In this document: positions 30,189 through 57,780 of the stretch, in pieces
How positions within the stretch are numbered: position 1 is the first letter of the stretch
How the letters are laid out: every line of letters starts with the position of its first letter
Source: Parcubacteria group bacterium
Lineage (GTDB): Bacteria; Patescibacteriota; Minisyncoccia; 2-02-FULL-40-12; IGHO2-01-FULL-4-A
DNA: 64,000 nt
Direction: 5' to 3'
Assembly: GCA_043821485.1 (NCBI GenBank)
Contig: JBDRCU010000037.1
Span: forward strand, 28,746-92,745
Position numbers and translations under genes: made by a program
The notes under the pieces: model-generated
Databases searched by the model: none
Told to the model about the DNA's origin: nothing
What the model saw: the letters and a program-made list of their open reading frames with translations, nothing else

Positions 30189-30953
30189 TTATTCAAATGA
30201 AATCGAGTTTATTATGGTTTCTATAGGCTCTTCTCTGTCTTGTTGTGAAATTACAAAAGTATAATCCGGACCAGAAACTAATATCAGTCTCACAGCAGAA
30301 CAATTCCAATAATCGGAGCGCATGATTACCTGATATGCATCTTTATTACTAAAATTTATATACCCCTCAGAGATAACACAATCACTAGGTATGGGTTTCC
30401 CCTGTTTATTAATCATAAAATCCCTCCATTCTGTCAGGTTTATTTTCCAGTCATAAATATCAATAGGCTCTTCGTTGTTTTCTATATATCCCTCTGGATA
30501 ACAGATTGAAAATCCAAATCTTTCACTGACTTCTTTAATCCAGTCATTCGGACAAGACGACATAAACTTGTTAGCTGCTTCTATTGAGACACTCTCATCT
30601 AACGAGCCTCCTCCCCTACCCCCAGCCAAAGGTTGAACAGACATGAATACATCTCCGTTTTCATCAAGGCCTACTTCGCTTCCCATAATTTGTATTTCTT
30701 GATCATCAGTAATATCTAAAGTAGATTCCGATATGGACTTTGGATAAAATCCAGCCACAAGCAATACTAGGATACCAAAAGCAAATGCGTATTTAAAAGC
30801 ATGGTTCCAAGAAAATGAACTTGGATGCGCCACCACCGCATCTTCTTCCGGCAAAGATTCCAACATCTTAATCATTGCCTCTTTCGAAGGCTTTGCTTCC
30901 CTATATCTTTTCAGAGAATCCCTTATTAATTTTTCTGCTTTTTCATCATTCAT
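30189..30953 (-). CDS. Putative anti-sigma factor (single TM), co-transcribed with the ECF sigma factor
   Basis: The gene overlaps the sigma gene stop by 8 nt. A central TM helix AFAFGILVLLVAGF is present. Confidence 0.5.
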   Translation of the reverse strand: MNDEKAEKLIRDSLKRYREAKPSKEAMIKMLESLPEEDAVVAHPSSFSWNHAFKYAFAFGILVLLVAGFYPKSISESTLDITDDQEIQIMGSEVGLDENGDVFMSVQPLAGGRGGGSLDESVSIEAANKFMSSCPNDWIKEVSERFGFSICYPEGYIENNEEPIDIYDWKINLTEWRDFMINKQGKPIPSDCVISEGYINFSNKDAYQVIMRSDYWNCSAVRLILVSGPDYTFVISQQDREEPIETIINSISFE

Positions 30954-31512
30954 GATTTTGTTCTAATTTTTCTTTTAATTTCTTTATTGCTCTTGATTGT
31001 AATTGCCTTATTGCATCTTCTTTCTTCCCTGTTATCTCTGCTATCTCCTTATTTGATAAATCATTCACAAACTTCAATGTTATAATTTCTTTCTGCTCAT
31101 CAGTTAATCCCTCAATGCATTCCATTACAGTACGAATCTCATCTTTTTTAATTAATTCTAAATTTAATCCATCGCTCGAATCCGGAATATTTTGCATCAT
31201 ACTTTCTGGTTCTTCAAAAAGCATTTCTTTCTTCTTCTTCCAACCGTCAATCACAGTATTGCGTGCAATTGTAAAAAAATATGCCAATGGATCACTGCTA
31301 GTCTCTCTGAATCTGTCAATTGCCTTGAAAGCTTTTACAAAAACAATCTGCACGATATCCTCTGATTCTTCTTTGCTCCGTACTCTGTGATAAACATAAC
31401 GATAAATCGGCGTGAAATATATGTCATACAAAATCCCAAATGCCTGGCTATCGCCTGCTTTTGCCTTCAGAATCAATTGTTTCGGATCTTCGTTTCCATT
31501 ACCACTGGTCAT
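30946..31512 (-). CDS. ECF-type RNA polymerase sigma-70 family factor
   Basis: The sigma-70 region 2 pattern YRYVYHRV...EDIVQIVFVKAF is present. A region-4 HTH is present. The product is 188 aa. Confidence 0.85.
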   Translation of the reverse strand: MTSGNGNEDPKQLILKAKAGDSQAFGILYDIYFTPIYRYVYHRVRSKEESEDIVQIVFVKAFKAIDRFRETSSDPLAYFFTIARNTVIDGWKKKKEMLFEEPESMMQNIPDSSDGLNLELIKKDEIRTVMECIEGLTDEQKEIITLKFVNDLSNKEIAEITGKKEDAIRQLQSRAIKKLKEKLEQNHE

Positions 31513-31606
31513 ATAACGATTATACTATAAATGTTGTGATTCGGAGTATATTCGATTGTTTAATATTGTCAAAATGTTATAATGGAGGGGTGTTTAAACA
31601 GTATAT

Positions 31607-32605
31607 ATGAAATATCCGCAAAGAGTACAGTTTCCAAAAGGGAAACAAAAAGAATTCCTATTTAATATAAAGAGAGTTCTCAAATGGGATACAAATGAGA
31701 TTGCGAATTTAGTAGGATTATCTACTCGTACTATACGTGACTGGCAAAGAGAAAAACTACTCATGTCATTACCAGCATTTAATAAGCTACTGAATGAATC
31801 TGGTATCCCTAAACCCAAAGGAATCAAAATCAGAGATCCATTTTGGTATACACAAGATGGAGGCATGAGAGGATATATAGCTTTAATAAAAAAGTACGGT
31901 CATTTCCCCAAAAATGAGAAAAAGCGAAAAGAGAAGTGGTATGAATGGTGGAATACCAAAGGCAAATACAGTCATCCACTTACAGTCTCCTCCCCCATCT
32001 CCCGACCTAGAAAATCTAAGGATCTAGCTGAGATGACCGGTATACTCCTAGGTGATGGTGGTATAACAAAAAACCAAGTTATTGTCACTTTAAATTGCAG
32101 AGATGACAAAGAATACTCAGAATACGTATATACACTAATGCAGAAATTATTTGGGGTGACTCCAAGTGTATATAGGCAGGAAGAAGCTTCTGTTAATAAG
32201 ATAGCGATATCCCGCGTCCAACTTGTAAAATACTGTGTAGAAAACTTGGGATTGGTTATCGGTGATAAAATAAGACAGCAAATAGATATACCCAAATGGG
32301 TTAAAGCTAATCAGAAATACAGCATCGCATGTCTTAGAGGCCTAGTAGATACAGACGGTTCTATATTCCTGGAATGTCATAAAATAAAAGGAAAGAAGTA
32401 TTGTTATCAACGCTTGAATTTCACTAGTCTTTCTGAGCCATTGCGGAAATCAGTTTTTAAGATATATACAAAATTAGGATTAACTCCAAAATTAAGAAAC
32501 AACAGATCCGTACAGATTGAAAAAAAGGAAGAAATAGCGTACTATTTCCGTACAGTAGACACAAGTAATCCTAAACATCGTAGACGCTTTGGAGGAGTCG
32601 GATAG
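31607..32605 (+). CDS. Free-standing HTH + double-motif LAGLIDADG endonuclease-like protein
   Basis: The N-terminal HTH is EIANLVGLSTRTIRDWQ. LAGLIDADG motif 1 is LAEMTGILLGDGGI. LAGLIDADG motif 2 is LRGLVDTDGSI. The 3' end overlaps tRNA-Ser by 15 nt. Confidence 0.75.
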   Translation: MKYPQRVQFPKGKQKEFLFNIKRVLKWDTNEIANLVGLSTRTIRDWQREKLLMSLPAFNKLLNESGIPKPKGIKIRDPFWYTQDGGMRGYIALIKKYGHFPKNEKKRKEKWYEWWNTKGKYSHPLTVSSPISRPRKSKDLAEMTGILLGDGGITKNQVIVTLNCRDDKEYSEYVYTLMQKLFGVTPSVYRQEEASVNKIAISRVQLVKYCVENLGLVIGDKIRQQIDIPKWVKANQKYSIACLRGLVDTDGSIFLECHKIKGKKYCYQRLNFTSLSEPLRKSVFKIYTKLGLTPKLRNNRSVQIEKKEEIAYYFRTVDTSNPKHRRRFGGVG

Positions 32606-32674
32606 TGGTTTATTCCAGCTGATTTGAAATCAGCCGGCCGCAAGGCCTCGTGGGTTCGAATCCCACCTCCTCCG
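32591..32674 (+). tRNA. tRNA-Ser (anticodon TGA), type II
   Basis: The acceptor is GGAGGAG/CTCCTCC. The anticodon stem GCTGA/TCAGC carries a TTTGAAA loop. The variable arm is GGCCGCAAGGCC and the T-arm is GTGGGTTCGAATCCCAC. No CCA is encoded. Confidence 0.8.
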
Positions 32675-32758
32675 CATGTTGATCTGTACCCCATAAAGTG
32701 GACACGGGGTATGGTCTATATGTTTTCTTTTGTTAACATTAATCATTAACAAAAGAAT

Positions 32759-33196
32759 ATGAGAACAATATATTCAAGCGAGGAAATCGCCAAGTTAAAA
32801 CAAAATCCATGTGTATTTAATTGCACAGAAAGGTTGATCAATTACACCTACGAGTTCAAGAAGCGCGCATTAAAATTGCATGCACAAGGAGTAAGTGCGA
32901 GGGAGATATGGAAGCGATCGGGCTTCGATGTCGATAAATGGAAAAAGCATTACTTCAAAGGAACTCTCCGTGATTGGAAGAAGATCGTAGAGAAAAATGG
33001 GGTCGAAGGGTTATTAAAACCTGATGGTATACAATTCGACAGAGGACCGAACAAGACTGACAAAGACAAATTAAAACGTCTGGAACTTCAGGTTAGATAT
33101 CTTGAAGCAGAAAACGATTTTTTAGCCAAACTCCGGGCCAAAAGAGCGGAGTCAAACTCAGGCCGTGTGAGAAATACAGAATCATCAAAGAATTAA
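32759..33196 (+). CDS. IS3-family transposase OrfA (HTH / leucine-zipper)
   Basis: The 145-aa product has a C-terminal heptad Leu repeat LKRLELQVRYLEAENDFLAKL. Confidence 0.85.
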   Translation: MRTIYSSEEIAKLKQNPCVFNCTERLINYTYEFKKRALKLHAQGVSAREIWKRSGFDVDKWKKHYFKGTLRDWKKIVEKNGVEGLLKPDGIQFDRGPNKTDKDKLKRLELQVRYLEAENDFLAKLRAKRAESNSGRVRNTESSKN

Positions 33197-34020
33197 ATGA
33201 TGATGCCAGTGTTCTTTGTTCATTAGCATATGTCTCCAGGAGTGGATACTACAAATGGTTACGAACTGCGGATCTGCCGGACAAGGACTATCCTGATTAT
33301 TTAAAAATCAAGAAGGTATTTGACAAAGGTAAGGGCAAATACGGCTGGAGAGCGATTAAAATGAGGATTCCAGCGATGAATCACAAGAAGATACAGCGGA
33401 TCATGAGGAAGTATGAATTGGTTGCCAAAGTGAGGAAAAGAAACCCATACAAGGCAATCATGAAAGAACGACTAGAACACAGGATATTCCCCAACAAACT
33501 CCAGAGAGAGTTTAATCAGACAATACCTCGCACCGTATTTTGCACCGACATCACCTATCTGCCGTTTAATCAACGGTTTGCCTACCTCTCAGTGGTAAAG
33601 GATGTTGCGACCGGTGAGGTGGTGGCATGGAGTGTGTCATCCGGTCTTGAGATGACACTGGTAACAGAAACAATCGAACAAATGGAGCCATGTGAAAATG
33701 CGCTGATCCATTCCGACCAAGGGTTCCACTACACCAATCCGTTGTTCATTGAGAACGTAAAGGAGCTCAGAATGAACCAATCAATGTCTGGTAAAGGAAA
33801 CTGCATAGACAATGCACCGATTGAATCCTTTTTTGGCCACATGAAAGACGAGCTGGATTACAAATCCTGCACATCTTTAGAAGAATTGCGTTTGAGAATT
33901 GAAGAATATATGAGATACTACAATTACGAAAGAAAGCAGTGGACAAGGAACAAGATGGCTCCGATTGAGTACAGAGATCATCTTTTGGCTCAATCAGAGG
34001 GGCAGGTGGTGTGTTCCTAA
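33118..34020 (+). CDS. IS3-family transposase OrfB (DDE integrase core), expressed by -1 frameshift from orfA
   Basis: The -1 frame is open from about 33,106. A candidate slippery heptamer T_TTT_TTA lies at 33,118-33,124. The product carries the rve-domain motifs HSDQGFHYT and MSGKGNCIDNAPIESFF. The first in-frame ATG is at 33,361. Confidence 0.78.
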   Translation, partial: FFSQTPGQKSGVKLRPCEKYRIIKELNDDASVLCSLAYVSRSGYYKWLRTADLPDKDYPDYLKIKKVFDKGKGKYGWRAIKMRIPAMNHKKIQRIMRKYELVAKVRKRNPYKAIMKERLEHRIFPNKLQREFNQTIPRTVFCTDITYLPFNQRFAYLSVVKDVATGEVVAWSVSSGLEMTLVTETIEQMEPCENALIHSDQGFHYTNPLFIENVKELRMNQSMSGKGNCIDNAPIESFFGHMKDELDYKSCTSLEELRLRIEEYMRYYNYERKQWTRNKMAPIEYRDHLLAQSEGQVVCS

Positions 34021-34079
34021 AGTGTCTACTAAATGGGGTACGGATCACAATTTACAATTTCAGAGTTTTCTTTGGTGGC

Positions 34080-46462: not shown

Positions 46463-46694
46463 ATAAAACCCTTGACTTACCTAGGTCATTCTAATACACT
46501 GTATGGGTACTATGAATTAACACAAAACATACATCTTCATAGCATTTATGAAGGCTCGGGATTGTCCCTCAATGGGATGGTCCCGAGTCTTTAATGACAG
46601 AACATTAACAACTTTACAGCCAACGATACGTATATTCGTATCGTTAACTAGATCAATGAAAGATAGTTTGAGTAAATCTCAACTATTCTTATAA

Positions 46695-46734
<40 letters not shown>

Positions 46735-48113
46735 GATAAGGCATGCAAGTCGAACGGGCAATCTTCGGATTGTCAGTGGCGAACGAGTTAGTAACGCCTT
46801 GGTACCTACCCTATACTCAAGAATAACTCCGAGAAATCGGAGCTAATACTTGATAGTCTCGAAAGAGTAAAGATTTATCGGTATAGGAGGGGCCTAGGTC
46901 CTATCAGCTTGTTGGTGAGGTAACGGCTCACCAAGGCTATGACGGGTAGGGGATGTGAGAGCATGATCCCCAACGAGGGAACTGAGAACGGTCCTTACAC
47001 CTACGGGTGGCCGCAGTCGAGAATATTGGACAATGCGCGAAAGCGTGATCCAGCGACGCCGCGTGCAGGAAGAAGGCCTTCGGGTTGTAAACTGCTTTTA
47101 TGTGGGAAGAATTTTGACGGTACCACAAGAATAAGGGGCTGCTAACTTCGTGCCAGCAGCAGCGGTAATACGAAGGCCCCAAGCGTTATCCGGAATTATT
47201 GGGCGTAAAGGGCAGGTAGCCGGTTGGTATAGTCTGATGTTAAATCTCATGGCTCAACTATGAGACCGCATCAGAAACGTATCAGCTAGAGCAAGTCAGA
47301 GGCATACGGAACGTGCGGTGTAGGGGTGAAATCCGTTGATATCGCACGGAACACCAAAAGCGAAGGCAGTATGCTGGGGCTTTGCTGACGGTCAACTGCG
47401 AAAGCGTGGGGATAGAAAAGGATTAGATACCCTTGTATTCCACGCCCTAAACGATCCAGACTAGCTATCGGGAGCATCGACCCTCCCGGTGGCGAAGCTA
47501 ACGCGTTAAGTCTGGCGCCTGGGAAGTACGATCGCAAGATTAAAACTCAAAGGAATAGGCGGGGATTCGCACAAGCGGTGGATCGCGTGGTTTAATTCGA
47601 TACAAAGCGAAGAACCTCACCAAGGTTAGACATCATAGTGAAAGCCTTCTGAAAAGTTGGCCCCTTTTATAGCACTATGACAGGTGGTGCACGGCTGTCG
47701 TCAGCTCGTCGAGTGATCGGTTCTCTTAAGTGAGGAAACGAGCGCAACCCCTGTCGTCTGTTACAAGTGTCAGACGATACTGCCTGGGATAACCAGGAGG
47801 AAGGAGGGGATGACGTCAAGTCAGCGTGTCCTTTGATACCTTGGGCTACACACGCGATACAATGGGTGTTAACAATGGGTTGCCAAACCGCGAGGTGGAG
47901 CTAATCCCATCAAATGCGCCCTCAGTTCGGATAGGAGGCTGAAACTTGCCTCCTTGAAGTTGGAATCGCTAGTAATCGCAGATCAGAATGCTGCGGTGAA
48001 TACGTTCTCGAATCTTGCACTCACTGCCCGTCACATCAGGGAAGCCGGAAATACCCAAAGCACCATAAATTCTAATGGTACTACGGTAGGTTCGGTAACA
48101 AGGATGAAGTCGT

Positions 48114-49017
48114 AGAGATTAAGAAATAAAATTTGCGACCTGTCAAGAGTAATCTGGCAGAAAAACCCGACTAATATCGGTGAAACCTAAATCTTAAAAT
48201 GTTATAATTAAGATATGGTAATACCGAGGAAAGCTAGGAGAATCACATATTCAACTGAAATAAGAGAGCTAAAAAAGAGACTAAAACTAGATGAGTCACA
48301 AAAGGCTATAGTGATAGGCAGTATATTGGGCGATGCAACATTAGAGCTCAATTGGTCAAAAACCAACTGCCGAATGAGAATTGATCATTCTATAAAACAA
48401 GAGGATTACGTACGACTAAAGTATACAATCCTCAAGGACTGGGTACTTACTGAACCTAAATACTACAAGCCTCATAGGTCCATATGGTTCCGAACAATAA
48501 GTCATCCCAACCTTACTGAACTATGGAAAATATTCTACAAGAACAAGAAAAAAATTATACCAGAAAATATAGCTGAACTAATCCAAAACCCCCTTACTGT
48601 TGCAACATGGTTTATGGATGATGGTAATGTACGAAGACGAAATTCACGTATAATTTCCTACGACCTCAATACTCAATCGTTCACATACGCAGAAAATGAA
48701 AAACTTCTGAACGCCTTGAAAACGGTCTATGGAATATCTTGCAGTCTACATAAAAATCATAACAGACATAGAATATATATCGGTACCAATGAAAAAAATA
48801 AATTCCAAAAGATAATACGTAAATTATCAACACCATCTCTTAAATACAAACTTCAGTGAATATGTGATTCTCTTGGCCCCGTAGAGACTTCTCGTACTCT
48901 GGCCCCATAGCAGAACGAGGGATAGCTGTACGTAGACAGCTATAATACGTCGGCCCCAGTTATTAAAAACTGGGTGAAGATATAGTCCATGCTCGTGGAA
49001 ACACGGGAATAAACATG
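48114..49017 (+). other. Intervening sequence (probable group I intron) in the 16S rRNA at an E. coli ~1506-equivalent site
   Basis: Exon 1 ends ...GAAGTCGT and exon 2 starts AACAAGGCACGG, which restores the universal GAAGTCGTAACAAGG. A U precedes the 5' splice site and the intron ends in G. The boundaries are approximate, within a few nt. Confidence 0.6.
48215..48859 (+). CDS. Intron-encoded double-motif LAGLIDADG homing endonuclease
   Basis: Motif 1 is IVIGSILGDATLE. Motif 2 is TVATWFMDDGNV. The ORF lies wholly inside the 16S insertion. Confidence 0.85.
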   Translation: MVIPRKARRITYSTEIRELKKRLKLDESQKAIVIGSILGDATLELNWSKTNCRMRIDHSIKQEDYVRLKYTILKDWVLTEPKYYKPHRSIWFRTISHPNLTELWKIFYKNKKKIIPENIAELIQNPLTVATWFMDDGNVRRRNSRIISYDLNTQSFTYAENEKLLNALKTVYGISCSLHKNHNRHRIYIGTNEKNKFQKIIRKLSTPSLKYKLQ

Positions 49018-56699: not shown

Positions 56700-56772
56700 G
56701 GGCGTGTAGCTCAGCGGTAGTAGCGCGTCACTGATAATGACGAGGCCGCAGGTTCGATCCCTGCCACGCCCA
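56700..56772 (+). tRNA. tRNA-Ile (anticodon GAT)
   Basis: The acceptor is GGGCGTG/CACGCCC. The anticodon stem CGTCA/TGACG carries a CTGATAA loop. The T-arm is GCAGGTTCGATCCCTGC. Confidence 0.85.
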
Positions 56773-56841
56773 CCGCGAAAACAACAATCTTTATTGATTG
56801 TTGTTTTTGTTTATTTAACGTCATGCTATACTAAAATAACT

Positions 56842-57639
56842 ATGCTTAAAAAAACCACAAGACCAAAACCAAGTACAAAAGAAATGCGTGAAGGAAAATT
56901 TAATCTACCTGCTTCCAAACTTCAGCTCATAGAAGAAGACGCTCCAACAAGAGATTTTCGCTCTTCATTTCACTGGAGAGTATTTCGTATAATGGCTGAA
57001 TTTGTTGATGGCTGGCAATTCCTTGCAGATTTTAAACGATCCGTAACATTCTTTGGTTCAGCACGATTTAAACCCGAAAGTCCATGGTACCAGCAAGCTC
57101 GTGAACTCGCTAGCAAGTTAGCTGACGATGGTTTTGATGTCATTACAGGCGGAGGCCCGGGTATCATGGAAGCTGCAAACCAAGGAGCGCATGAGTCTCA
57201 CACTAATTCTCTTGGATTAATTGAAGACGACAGAAGAGGAGATTCAAGGGGCGATTCAATAGGATTAAACATCAGATTGCCATTCGAACAACGTATTAAT
57301 AAATATGTTGAGAAAGCAGTTGCCTTCCATTATTTCTTTGTACGAAAAGTAATGCTTACATATTATGCACAAGCCTACATCTATTTCCCCGGAGGATTTG
57401 GAACTCTGGACGAAGCATTTGAAGTTATAACCTTGGTACAAACAAAAAAGATACCTCGCATACCTATCGTATTTGTTGGCAAAGGCTACTGGGGGAAACT
57501 GGATGACTTTATGAAAAATACAGTATATGGCGAATACAAAGCAATAGACAAGGGAGATATGGACATTTATACCATTGTTGACACAGTTGAAGATGCCTAC
57601 AAGATTATAAAAAAATCCCCGCCAAGAAAGGTTTTCTGA
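56842..57639 (+). CDS. LOG-family protein (cytokinin riboside 5'-monophosphate phosphoribohydrolase-like; TIGR00730)
   Basis: The motifs VTFFGSAR and GGGPGIMEAANQGA are present. The start is taken at the ATG at 56842 to avoid overlap with tRNA-Ile. Confidence 0.8.
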   Translation: MLKKTTRPKPSTKEMREGKFNLPASKLQLIEEDAPTRDFRSSFHWRVFRIMAEFVDGWQFLADFKRSVTFFGSARFKPESPWYQQARELASKLADDGFDVITGGGPGIMEAANQGAHESHTNSLGLIEDDRRGDSRGDSIGLNIRLPFEQRINKYVEKAVAFHYFFVRKVMLTYYAQAYIYFPGGFGTLDEAFEVITLVQTKKIPRIPIVFVGKGYWGKLDDFMKNTVYGEYKAIDKGDMDIYTIVDTVEDAYKIIKKSPPRKVF

Positions 57640-57705
57640 TATCAAAAGCTTCCCCAAAAACTCAAAATGTGTTATAACATAAGACGCCCATAAAACATCT
57701 TATTA

Positions 57706-57778
57706 GGGCCCGTAGCTCAGTTGGTAGAGCGCCTCACTTGCACTGAGGAGGCCGGGGGTTCGAATCCTCTCGGGTCCA
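57706..57778 (+). tRNA. tRNA-Ala (anticodon TGC), with the G3:U70 identity pair
   Basis: The acceptor is GGGCCCG/CGGGTCC. The anticodon stem CCTCA/TGAGG carries a CTTGCAC loop. A TTCGAAT T-loop is present. Confidence 0.85.
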
Positions 57779-57780
57779 CG

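Follow-up and report, generated by a model that had tools for sequence, protein, structure and literature searches.

The stretch of DNA analysed here, referred to as the window, comprises 64,000 nucleotides (nt) of contig JBDRCU010000037.1 from a Parcubacteria group bacterium. On its forward strand, an open reading frame (ORF) at 31607..32605 begins with ATG and encodes a protein of 332 amino acids (aa) with an N-terminal helix-turn-helix (HTH) domain and the two motifs of a LAGLIDADG homing endonuclease. The ORF runs into a tRNA-Ser(UGA) gene. Its TAG stop codon (32603–32605) lies 15 nt inside the tRNA, and positions 32591–32605, the first 15 nt of the tRNA, double as the codons for the four C-terminal residues (GGVG) and the stop. 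A first-pass annotation of the locus, made from the sequence alone, had described this 15-nt overlap, which the ARAGORN and Rfam placements of the tRNA reproduce; the end that it gave for the gene, 32674, matches the end of the tRNA in the Rfam placement, whereas the ORF itself ends at 32605. The gene and its partner tRNA have the following parts:

31607..32605, forward strand: coding sequence of the HTH-LAGLIDADG endonuclease, 332 aa (ORF, Pfam, homologues, AlphaFold2, Foldseek)
31643..31825, forward strand: predicted XRE/Cro-C1-type HTH domain, N-terminal, aa 13–73 (AlphaFold2 domain model, Foldseek, profile search)
31844..31963, forward strand: two long Trp-rich helices, aa 80–119 (KKWYEWW), followed by a low-confidence linker, aa 120–137 (AlphaFold2 secondary structure and confidence profile)
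32018..32059, forward strand: first LAGLIDADG helix and motif (..LAEMTGILLGDG), with the catalytic Asp150 at nt 32054–32056 (homologue alignment)
32312..32359, forward strand: second LAGLIDADG helix and motif (..CLRGLVDTDG), with the catalytic Asp250 at nt 32354–32356 (homologue alignment)
32591..32675 (ARAGORN) or 32591..32674 (Rfam, 55.3 bits), forward strand: tRNA-Ser(UGA), linked in cis to the endonuclease gene

Several homologues end in GGVG, GEVG or GEVA through the same reading into their own tRNA-Ser. A protein on record that is 100% identical to the window protein (P0001) is annotated as a hypothetical protein of a Parcubacteria-group metagenome-assembled genome (MAG).

Architecture of the endonuclease

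The window protein matches the Pfam family LAGLIDADG_3 above the curated cut-off (E 2.6e-7) and gives weak matches to Pfam HTH families at aa 27–52. An AlphaFold2 model built with 25 homologues has a predicted local distance difference test (pLDDT) score of 89.8 over the whole protein and consists of three parts: a helical domain (aa 13–73), a stretch of helices and linker (aa 80–137) and a core (aa 138–329). The core adopts the canonical two-domain LAGLIDADG arrangement, a pseudo-symmetric alpha-beta-beta-alpha-beta-beta-alpha pair around two central LAGLIDADG helices, with its secondary-structure elements in the expected order. Its top Foldseek match in the PDB is the archaeal intron endonuclease I-Tsp061I (E 1e-12), and the next ranks are taken by intein endonucleases, E-DreI/I-DmoI and I-OnuI-type enzymes. 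More than 100 PDB matches reach E ≤ 1e-3 and the top-ranked ones are LAGLIDADG enzymes, with WhiA (8dy9_I) appearing only at rank 36. Both motifs read in the first-pass annotation are real (LLGDGG with D150 and LVDTDG with D250), as is their fusion to an N-terminal HTH.

The N-terminal domain modelled alone has a pLDDT of 85.5. Its best Foldseek matches are HipB, C.BclI, C.Kpn2I, SinR and DdrO, at a probability of ~1 and E values of only 0.007–0.1, and it superimposes on HipB, C.BclI, SinR and DdrO with a root-mean-square deviation of ~2–3 Å over ~56–63 residues. A profile search with this domain gave weak matches to CylR2, HigA and HipB, and among 25 family members Pfam HTH_26, HTH_3, HTH_17 or MerR were each matched by 4–9. 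The domain is therefore modelled as a five-helix bundle with an HTH of the XRE/Cro-C1 type and is a predicted DNA binder. In the helices that follow it, W111, W114 and W115 are invariant or near-invariant among homologues. As modelled, the window protein is a free-standing, monomeric, two-motif LAGLIDADG endonuclease.

Linkage of the family to tRNA-Ser

A word-indexed search returned 668 homologues of the window protein, and the 80 best genomic loci of the family were scanned for tRNA genes and the distances measured. A tRNA-Ser on the same strand lies 3′ of the gene in 74 of the 75 evaluable species-level loci; six of the 80 loci lack one, five because the contig ends less than 50 nt past the stop codon, while the sixth (L067) has none. 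The gap between stop codon and tRNA has a median of 13 nt and falls between −97 and +63 nt in 71 of the 74 loci, with 21 ORFs overlapping the tRNA. The partner carries the anticodon GCU at 57 loci, UGA at 11, CGA at four, and GGA and ACU at one each, and the neighbourhood other than the tRNA-Ser is variable among loci. P0002, the closest relative of the window protein (53% identity), is encoded between Ser(GCU) and Ser(UGA), with an identical 15-nt overlap into the latter, and metagenome contigs of two relatives have the same gene–tRNA-Ser arrangement. Since genomes of this kind have a handful of tRNA-Ser genes among ~1000 genes, chance would place the two side by side at well below 1% of loci, and the observed adjacency, a near-obligate linkage to tRNA-Ser whatever the isoacceptor, is far above chance. 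Whether relatives share the tRNA-Ser neighbour had been raised when the locus was first annotated; that they do is the central result of this analysis. At many loci another tRNA lies within ~150 nt upstream, and the gene is often sandwiched by conserved tRNA genes.

Neither the studies of introns and rRNA insertions in Patescibacteria that are cited next nor full-text searches yielded a description of the family or of its linkage to tRNA-Ser. Most tRNA introns of Patescibacteria are reported to lack endonuclease genes, those that are present being of the HNH type (PMC13011429), and another study treats rRNA insertions with LAGLIDADG endonucleases in bacteria of the candidate phyla radiation (CPR) (PMC11270868).

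Further observations concern the surroundings of these tRNA genes. A tRNA-Ser with the anticodon ACU (A34) is found at nine loci of Kaiser-, Zambryski-, Nomura- and Vogelbacteria type (L028, L054, L059, L061, L065, L067, L069, L071 and L078; for example L059, 4851–4940, minus strand). It is divergent from the endonuclease gene and just upstream of it in seven of the nine, and a normal tRNA-Ser(GCU) is also there in most. Apart from tRNA-Arg(ACG), bacterial tRNAs with A34 are unusual. A comF-like phosphoribosyltransferase gene and pilM/pilO (DNA uptake, type IV pilus) recur beside the tRNA-Ser(GCU)/endonuclease gene in varied arrangements (L011, L017, L023, L025, L101 and L216–L235), and a ParE-type toxin pair separates them in the P0002 lineage.

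Distribution and conservation of the family

The best 120 of the 668 homologues are 307–391 aa long and 44–53% identical to the window protein, and all named ones belong to Patescibacteria. An exhaustive profile search of 1.84 billion representatives (50% identity clusters) recovered 2201 clusters at E ≤ 1e-10, of which 659 also reach E ≤ 1e-30, and at least 450 species-level genomes encode a relative. The family is confined almost entirely to Parcubacteria-type Patescibacteria. Named hosts of Paceibacteria type include Yonath-, Nealson-, Staskawicz-, Kaiser-, Zambryski-, Nomura-, Wolfe- and Jorgensenbacteria, among others, and those of ABY1 type are Moran-, Uhr- and Andersenbacteria; a few family-bearing MAGs are labelled Omnitrophota or Nitrospirae. 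Four loci with UCN-type tRNA-Ser partners (L060, L080, L072 and L074) lie on contigs labelled Nitrospirae/Nitrospirales or Omnitrophota, one of them 303 kb long, which may reflect binning error or real occurrence. The family is currently annotated as 'hypothetical protein' or generically as 'LAGLIDADG family homing endonuclease' and deserves a name and a database model.

Conservation was assessed in an alignment of 326 diverse full-length members and in a second set of 128 representatives chosen without word or motif bias. G149-D150-G151, D248, G251 and K221 are invariant in 326 of 326 sequences, whereas at position 250 one sequence has Glu and the other 325 have Asp. D150 is likewise present in 128 of the 128 unbiased representatives, where the other catalytic residues hold too. 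The ratio of non-synonymous to synonymous substitution rates (dN/dS, or omega) is 0.07–0.18 in all 11 close pairs with estimable dS; the L032/L033 pair, which is unsaturated, has a dS of 0.09 and an omega of 0.11. These values indicate strong purifying selection on a protein with intact active-site residues, and the window protein is most likely catalytically active. The acidic residues of both LAGLIDADG motifs, the second of which had been in question, are thus kept. The possibility that degenerate, non-catalytic motifs had been retained in a core regulator, also considered in the first-pass annotation, is contradicted by the invariant motifs together with the low dN/dS.

The upstream end of the gene

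Two features lie immediately upstream of the present start codon:

31575..31583, forward strand: putative promoter P1, an extended −10 box TG-T-TATAAT (TATAAT at 31578–31583; read from the sequence)
31590..31610, forward strand: candidate relic of the ancestral start, GTG (31590) and five codons, with a TGA overlapping the present ATG at 31607 (ATGA; comparison with relatives)

The P1 region reads TATAAT-GGAGnT-ATGGCTGAGTCG. A pattern composed of a TAnnAT-type −10 box, GGAGnT and ATG was searched for in 81 loci (80 related loci and the window) and found in 56, of which 42 have the upstream TG. In its typical form the −10 box (often TGnTATAAT) is followed by six bases, usually GGAGAT or GGAGGT, and then by the start codon. 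Such spacing would correspond to the geometry of a leaderless mRNA and would place the start of transcription in the window near 31590. We considered whether a leaderless start is peculiar to the endonuclease gene and rejected this, as it is the norm in the window genome: 35 of the 39 window ORFs of at least 200 aa lack a GGAG or GAGG (Shine–Dalgarno) sequence within 22 nt upstream, many window ORFs have a TAnnnT −10 box 6–7 nt before ATG, and leaderless mRNAs seem to be the prevailing kind in this genome. What sets the endonuclease gene apart is only its GGAG discriminator and its tRNA-like first codons.

The likeness to tRNA was quantified with a position matrix built from positions 1–26 of 109 tRNA-Ser genes and applied in a fixed register from GGAG onward. 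The starts of the endonuclease genes score +7.7 bits on average, compared with −27.6 bits (standard deviation 9.7) for 586 other ORF starts in the same loci, none of which reaches the endonuclease median. With positions 10–26 alone the scores are +4.2 and −13.7, and 0.5% of the other starts reach the endonuclease median. In 19 cases codon 4 encodes Ser, and 17 of these have TCG, a codon that makes up 11% of the Ser codons elsewhere in the endonuclease genes; the third-position G is kept even when the amino acid changes. These comparisons point to a nucleotide-level constraint on the 5′ end of the gene, which resembles the first 26 nt of a tRNA-Ser gene. Because the loci are homologous, the resemblance, which is statistically strong, is essentially a single ancestral one.

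The window gene departs from its relatives at this end. Their start codon lies 6 nt after the −10 box; the window holds a GTG at that position, and the frame opened by it closes after six codons. The conserved N-terminus of the family (KYPQRV..) continues in the +2 frame from the ATG at 31607. We infer that a frameshift at the 5′ terminus was followed by re-initiation, by which the complete conserved protein was kept.

The downstream end and its interlock with the tRNA

The 3′ end of the gene is arranged differently according to the type of partner tRNA. Where the partner is an AGY tRNA, the final codons of the gene typically read CAC TTG AAA AGA TAC (H-L-K-R-Y) and hold a −35 box, the −10 box is in the short spacer and the tRNA starts 8–11 nt later. 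Of 58 AGY loci, 29 have a promoter-like site that ends 4–15 nt ahead of the tRNA, compared with 3% of shuffled sequences, and 26 match a stricter pattern, with the −35 box within the ORF in all 26. The predicted promoter of an AGY-partner tRNA has its −35 box in the last codons of the endonuclease. At UCN loci such sites show no enrichment (5 of 17, compared with 14% in shuffled sequences), and the ORF usually runs into the tRNA or stops within 10 nt of it.

The window, with its UGA partner, holds one candidate site in this region:

32517..32545, forward strand: weak promoter-like site TTGAAA-17-TACTAT (9 of 12 matches to the consensus), 45 nt before the tRNA, in the 3′ end of the ORF

It is possible as a tRNA promoter and unconvincing. 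The TTGAAA at the 3′ end was also considered as a relic of a tRNA-Ser(UGA) anticodon loop; this was rejected, the match being of 8 nt only and a −35 box explaining it better. The tRNA-Ser of the window is probably co-transcribed with the endonuclease gene, by transcription through the latter, in which case cleavage of the co-transcript by RNase P would remove the stop codon of the endonuclease and limit its expression.

Absence of an intron, intein or phage context

The ORF had been described as free-standing, and the analysis agrees: neither a group I intron or other RNA family in its flanks nor an intein context was found. Group I and group II intron models gave no match around the ORF even at E ≤ 1, an Rfam scan found no structured RNA flanking the ORF besides the tRNA, and there are no orphan tRNA 3′ fragments near it. 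The downstream tRNA-Ser is complete and uninterrupted by the ORF, no Hint domain was matched in Pfam and the ORF is not in frame with any host protein. A flanking gene with an overlooked intron or intein that contains the ORF would have precedents, in that other LAGLIDADG genes of Patescibacteria are carried by rRNA insertions (PMC11270868) and tRNA introns are common in this group (PMC13011429). Set against these precedents, the whole tRNA-Ser that follows the ORF, the missing intron, Hint and tRNA-fragment matches, and the gene's own putative promoter and leaderless start make such a hidden location extremely improbable, and we rejected it.

Carriage by phages or plasmids was rejected as well. 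A scan of viral contigs returned no real family member, the best match being partial and 31% identical, and PHROGs and PADLOC gave only generic endonuclease matches.

Presence, absence and relocation of the gene

A metagenome scan for one type of tRNA-Ser(GCU) gave 120 loci, to which 10 from the viral-contig scan were added (130 in total). The tRNA-Ser(GCU) pattern is not specific to Patescibacteria, most of the 130 loci having a GC content of 55–73%, and hmmsearch --max found no remnant of the gene in any of these viral and metagenome tRNA-scan loci.

Several Patescibacteria-like loci that lack the gene match loci that contain it in their flanks, the comparisons being between related lineages and not within one population. 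The empty locus L106, in which Arg(GCG) on the opposite strand is followed after 134 nt by Ser(GCU), is syntenic with the filled loci L029, L015, L046 and L013. Empty L121 matches filled L010, empty L131 shares an upstream ORF with filled L045, and empty L101 has a comF-like upstream gene in common with filled L011, L017 and L023. The ComF-like protein of L101 is 55–57% identical to those of L011, L017 and L023, whereas that of filled L025 is only 44–46% identical to them; L101 is thus nearer to these loci than L025 is, and the absence is nested among presences. The L106 junction, the only insertion point reconstructed, has two tandem promoter-like elements 9 nt apart (the −10 box of P1, 9 nt, the −35 box of P2), and in its filled relatives the ORF lies precisely between the −10 box of the first element and the −35 box of the second. 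A decayed copy is found at L058, where the HTH region is lost and the frame is shifted. The gene order is comF–endonuclease–Ser(GCU) in some lineages and comF–Ser(GCU)–endonuclease–Ser(UGA) in others. Between related lineages, the gene is polymorphic for presence and absence at a site that is otherwise conserved. In the protein tree, bootstrap support is limited to shallow clades, which agree with the taxon labels.

Two further comparisons were set aside. L095 and L018, considered as a close filled/empty pair, have only the tRNA in common (99% identical) and are useless for defining boundaries. A mosaic tRNA (L045 compared with L131) was considered as proof of co-conversion and is non-specific, D-arm swapping being widespread in these tRNA-Ser(GCU) genes. 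Among the tRNA-Ser(GCU) genes of L018, L031, L038, L042, L045, L055, L062, L095, L101 and L131, the variable and T arms are 90–97% identical and the D-arms and anticodon stems 45–60%, so that tRNA-Ser(GCU) evolution appears to be modular or mosaic in these loci.

Other features of the neighbourhood

Upstream of the endonuclease gene, the first-pass annotation had placed a divergent pair of genes for an extracytoplasmic function (ECF) sigma factor and its anti-sigma factor. Pfam confirms the sigma factor ORF (30946..31512, reverse strand) and gives no match for the presumed anti-sigma ORF. Downstream, an IS3-type element (32680..34047) is bounded by inverted repeats of 26 nt that match at 85%, and its ORFs, which have HTH_Tnp_2 and rve domains, appear to be split. 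It had been placed 5 nt past the tRNA, which is its distance from the Rfam end of the tRNA (32674), and lies 4 nt from the ARAGORN end. The contigs that carry P0002 (L226–L235; for example L227, 5086 onward) diverge or break right past the CCA end of tRNA-Ser(tga), with at least three distinct sequences 3′ of the tRNA and one contig with an altered tRNA 3′ end. The 3′ side of tRNA-Ser(UGA) appears to be an integration hot spot, and the insertion element in the window points the same way. In several unrelated lineages (L005, L006, L024, L030 and L226–L229) a short sequence with an inverted repeat (ATTTTCACTTTTTGTGAAATCGTAA and variants) occurs in the first ~25 nt past the linked tRNA-Ser and could be a terminator or an attachment site.

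A second LAGLIDADG gene lies further along the window. A 16S rRNA match at 46689–48143 is followed by a LAGLIDADG_2 ORF (48215–48859), by ~8 kb of ordinary protein genes, and by tRNA-Ile and tRNA-Ala (region 56700–57779). No 23S rRNA was found within the window, and the rRNA operon looks split or unusually arranged. Paralogy between this 16S-adjacent endonuclease and the tRNA-linked one, a kinship suggested for comparison when the locus was first annotated, was rejected: the two belong to different Pfam families and BLASTP found no significant similarity between them.

Discussion

Homing endonucleases usually persist in self-splicing introns or inteins, and most of the free-standing ones known are from phages. 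The reading that we favour, to which we give about even chances, is that the window gene belongs to a long-lived family of free-standing homing endonucleases specialised on the 5′ side of tRNA-Ser genes. In its best-supported form, the family would be mostly vertically inherited and occasionally lost, regained or moved, and would be hard to delete through its interleaving with the promoter or body of the tRNA. Its endonuclease would have gained an N-terminal XRE-type HTH domain and would cut tRNA-Ser loci that lack the gene, which would then be copied in during repair of the break, with the conserved tRNA genes on one or both sides serving as homology arms. The tRNA being presumably essential, the interleaving would make a simple deletion costly, and the HTH domain would either widen the recognition of the target or act as a repressor of its own gene's promoter, like the HTH of I-TevI. 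The first-pass annotation had offered two alternatives, a mobile free-standing endonuclease that targets the tRNA locus and a domesticated one that acts as a regulator or maturase. Neither is proven; the former fits better, and we prefer it because of the empty sites, the decayed copy and the changes of partner tRNA.

Several points weigh against a mobile endonuclease. No cleavage target site could be derived from the compared loci. The tRNAs of filled L046 and empty L106 are 92% identical, which argues against a target wholly inside the tRNA, since such a target would leave the carrier non-immune; the L106 junction is AT-rich and poorly conserved, which is unusual for a homing site. Since the genomic context closely tracks the protein tree and the scanned viral contigs gave no family member, inheritance would be mostly vertical. 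Catalytic invariance and a dN/dS of ~0.1 over deep divergence look more like a gene that the host needs than like a cycle of invasion, decay and loss. In the genomes with empty sites the gene could sit at another tRNA-Ser, relocations cannot be counted with certainty because the deep branches of the tree are unsupported, and the changes among tga, cga and gga partners could be single-base changes of the anticodon.

Much of this evidence bears on the main alternative, that of a domesticated endonuclease or DNA-binding regulator with a host role in cis with tRNA-Ser and vertical inheritance, which we regard as possible and on balance unlikely. Such a protein might, for example, control the tRNA-Ser promoter through its XRE HTH or make a programmed nick or break beside the tRNA gene. 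Its best argument is purifying selection, with dN/dS of 0.07–0.18 and invariant catalytic Asp and Lys in the 326 members. The clade-specific synteny, with shallow clades that match the taxon labels, the breadth of the family (at least 450 species and 659 clusters at 50% identity) and the viral contigs without a member are also in keeping with domestication; XRE-type HTH domains are typical operator binders, and the nucleotide-level constraint in the first codons points to a DNA or RNA element located where the gene itself begins. A host role is harder to reconcile with clean empty sites that have the same flanks in related lineages and are nested among filled ones, with the decayed copy at L058, and with the variation in both the partner tRNA and the position relative to Ser(GCU). 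The gene was present in 0 of ~9 Patescibacteria-like metagenome loci with the tRNA-Ser(GCU) type that was searched, and there is no known host function that requires an active LAGLIDADG site beside one tRNA species. A narrower form of regulator, a WhiA-like transcription factor in which the LAGLIDADG fold is a non-catalytic DNA-binding platform joined to an HTH, would account for the combination of the same two kinds of domain, for the rank of WhiA among the structural matches and for weak Pfam LAGLIDADG_WhiA matches in 4 of 25 members. We consider it improbable: the domain order is reversed, with the HTH at the N-terminus here, neither WhiA_N nor HTH_WhiA was matched, true endonucleases score far above WhiA in Foldseek, and both catalytic acidic residues and the Lys are invariant. 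WhiA itself has lost the LAGLIDADG catalytic residues, as its published structures show. More improbable still is an RNA-directed factor, a maturase-like chaperone or a processing factor for a co-transcribed pre-tRNA-Ser. The tight same-strand linkage and the probable co-transcription at UCN loci would suit it, some LAGLIDADG proteins are intron maturases, and the bI3 maturase is among the fold matches. Against it, no intron or structured RNA is detectable besides the tRNA, AGY-partner tRNAs have a putative promoter of their own, tRNA-Ser genes work without the endonuclease gene in related lineages with empty sites, and maturase activity needs no invariant metal-binding Asp.

A more speculative extension, which we regard as rather doubtful, takes the two ends of the gene together as a third lifestyle of homing endonuclease genes besides introns and inteins, namely a cassette that invades and rebuilds tRNA-Ser genes. 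The left end of such a cassette would keep ~26 nt that mimic tRNA-Ser positions 1–26 and now serve as promoter discriminator, start codon and first codons, and these would be under nucleotide-level selection, with a possible role as homology arm, target half-site or operator. The right end would give the tRNA a new promoter and 5′ part, or feed the tRNA by read-through. Processing by RNase P, or the cassette's own promoter, would do for it what splicing does for intron-borne endonucleases. If true, this would explain the strict linkage to tRNA-Ser whatever the anticodon, and it might explain the mosaic D-arms of these tRNAs.

Comparison with known systems places the family nearest to the archaeal intron and intein enzymes of the LAGLIDADG_3 type. 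I-Tsp061I, I-DmoI, PI-PfuI and the Tli VMA intein endonuclease share with it the monomer built around two helices, the Asp that ends each motif and the conserved Lys, and they are its best structural and sequence matches, at an identity of only ~20%. The archaeal enzymes lie inside rRNA introns or inteins and lack an HTH, whereas the window family is free-standing and tied to tRNA-Ser, and adds an XRE-type HTH and a helical connector, together ~135 aa. SegB of phage T4 is a free-standing homing endonuclease encoded in the phage tRNA gene cluster, and SegB and the other seg and mob endonucleases probably spread through the repair of double-strand breaks, during which flanking markers are co-converted. 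The likeness lies in a free-standing gene between the genes of a tRNA cluster and in an accessory DNA-binding module. SegB differs in being a GIY-YIG enzyme that is phage-borne and not interleaved with a tRNA promoter or body, whereas the window family is chromosomal, of the LAGLIDADG type and stable over deep bacterial divergence. Yeast HO (F-SceII) is likewise free-standing and of the LAGLIDADG type; it descends from an intein or intron enzyme, has gained a DNA-binding domain and is kept by selection. Unlike the window family, which has empty sites in relatives, HO is a domesticated eukaryotic gene that acts in mating-type switching and carries a zinc finger. WhiA, a sporulation and cell-division regulator of Gram-positive bacteria, resembles the family in its LAGLIDADG scaffold and HTH, with a weak structural match and a few weak Pfam matches, and differs in its reversed domain order, in the loss of catalytic residues and in having no link to tRNA. 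The LAGLIDADG endonucleases of rRNA insertions in CPR bacteria, including that at 48215..48859, belong to the same phylum and broad superfamily (PMC11270868); they differ in being of the LAGLIDADG_2 type, without significant similarity to the window protein, associated with rRNA and devoid of an HTH.

The LAGLIDADG family described here is free-standing and chromosomal, has stayed intact across a bacterial superphylum and is physically interlocked with a single kind of tRNA gene. Were the family mobile, it would illustrate a new means by which a selfish nuclease can make its own loss difficult, and it would provide hundreds of natural, diverse, monomeric LAGLIDADG enzymes with an HTH, of possible interest for meganuclease engineering. 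If it is domesticated, it would point to a function tied to tRNA-Ser in Patescibacteria, whose gene content is largely unexplained. In either case, the linkage to tRNA-Ser offers a simple experimental handle.

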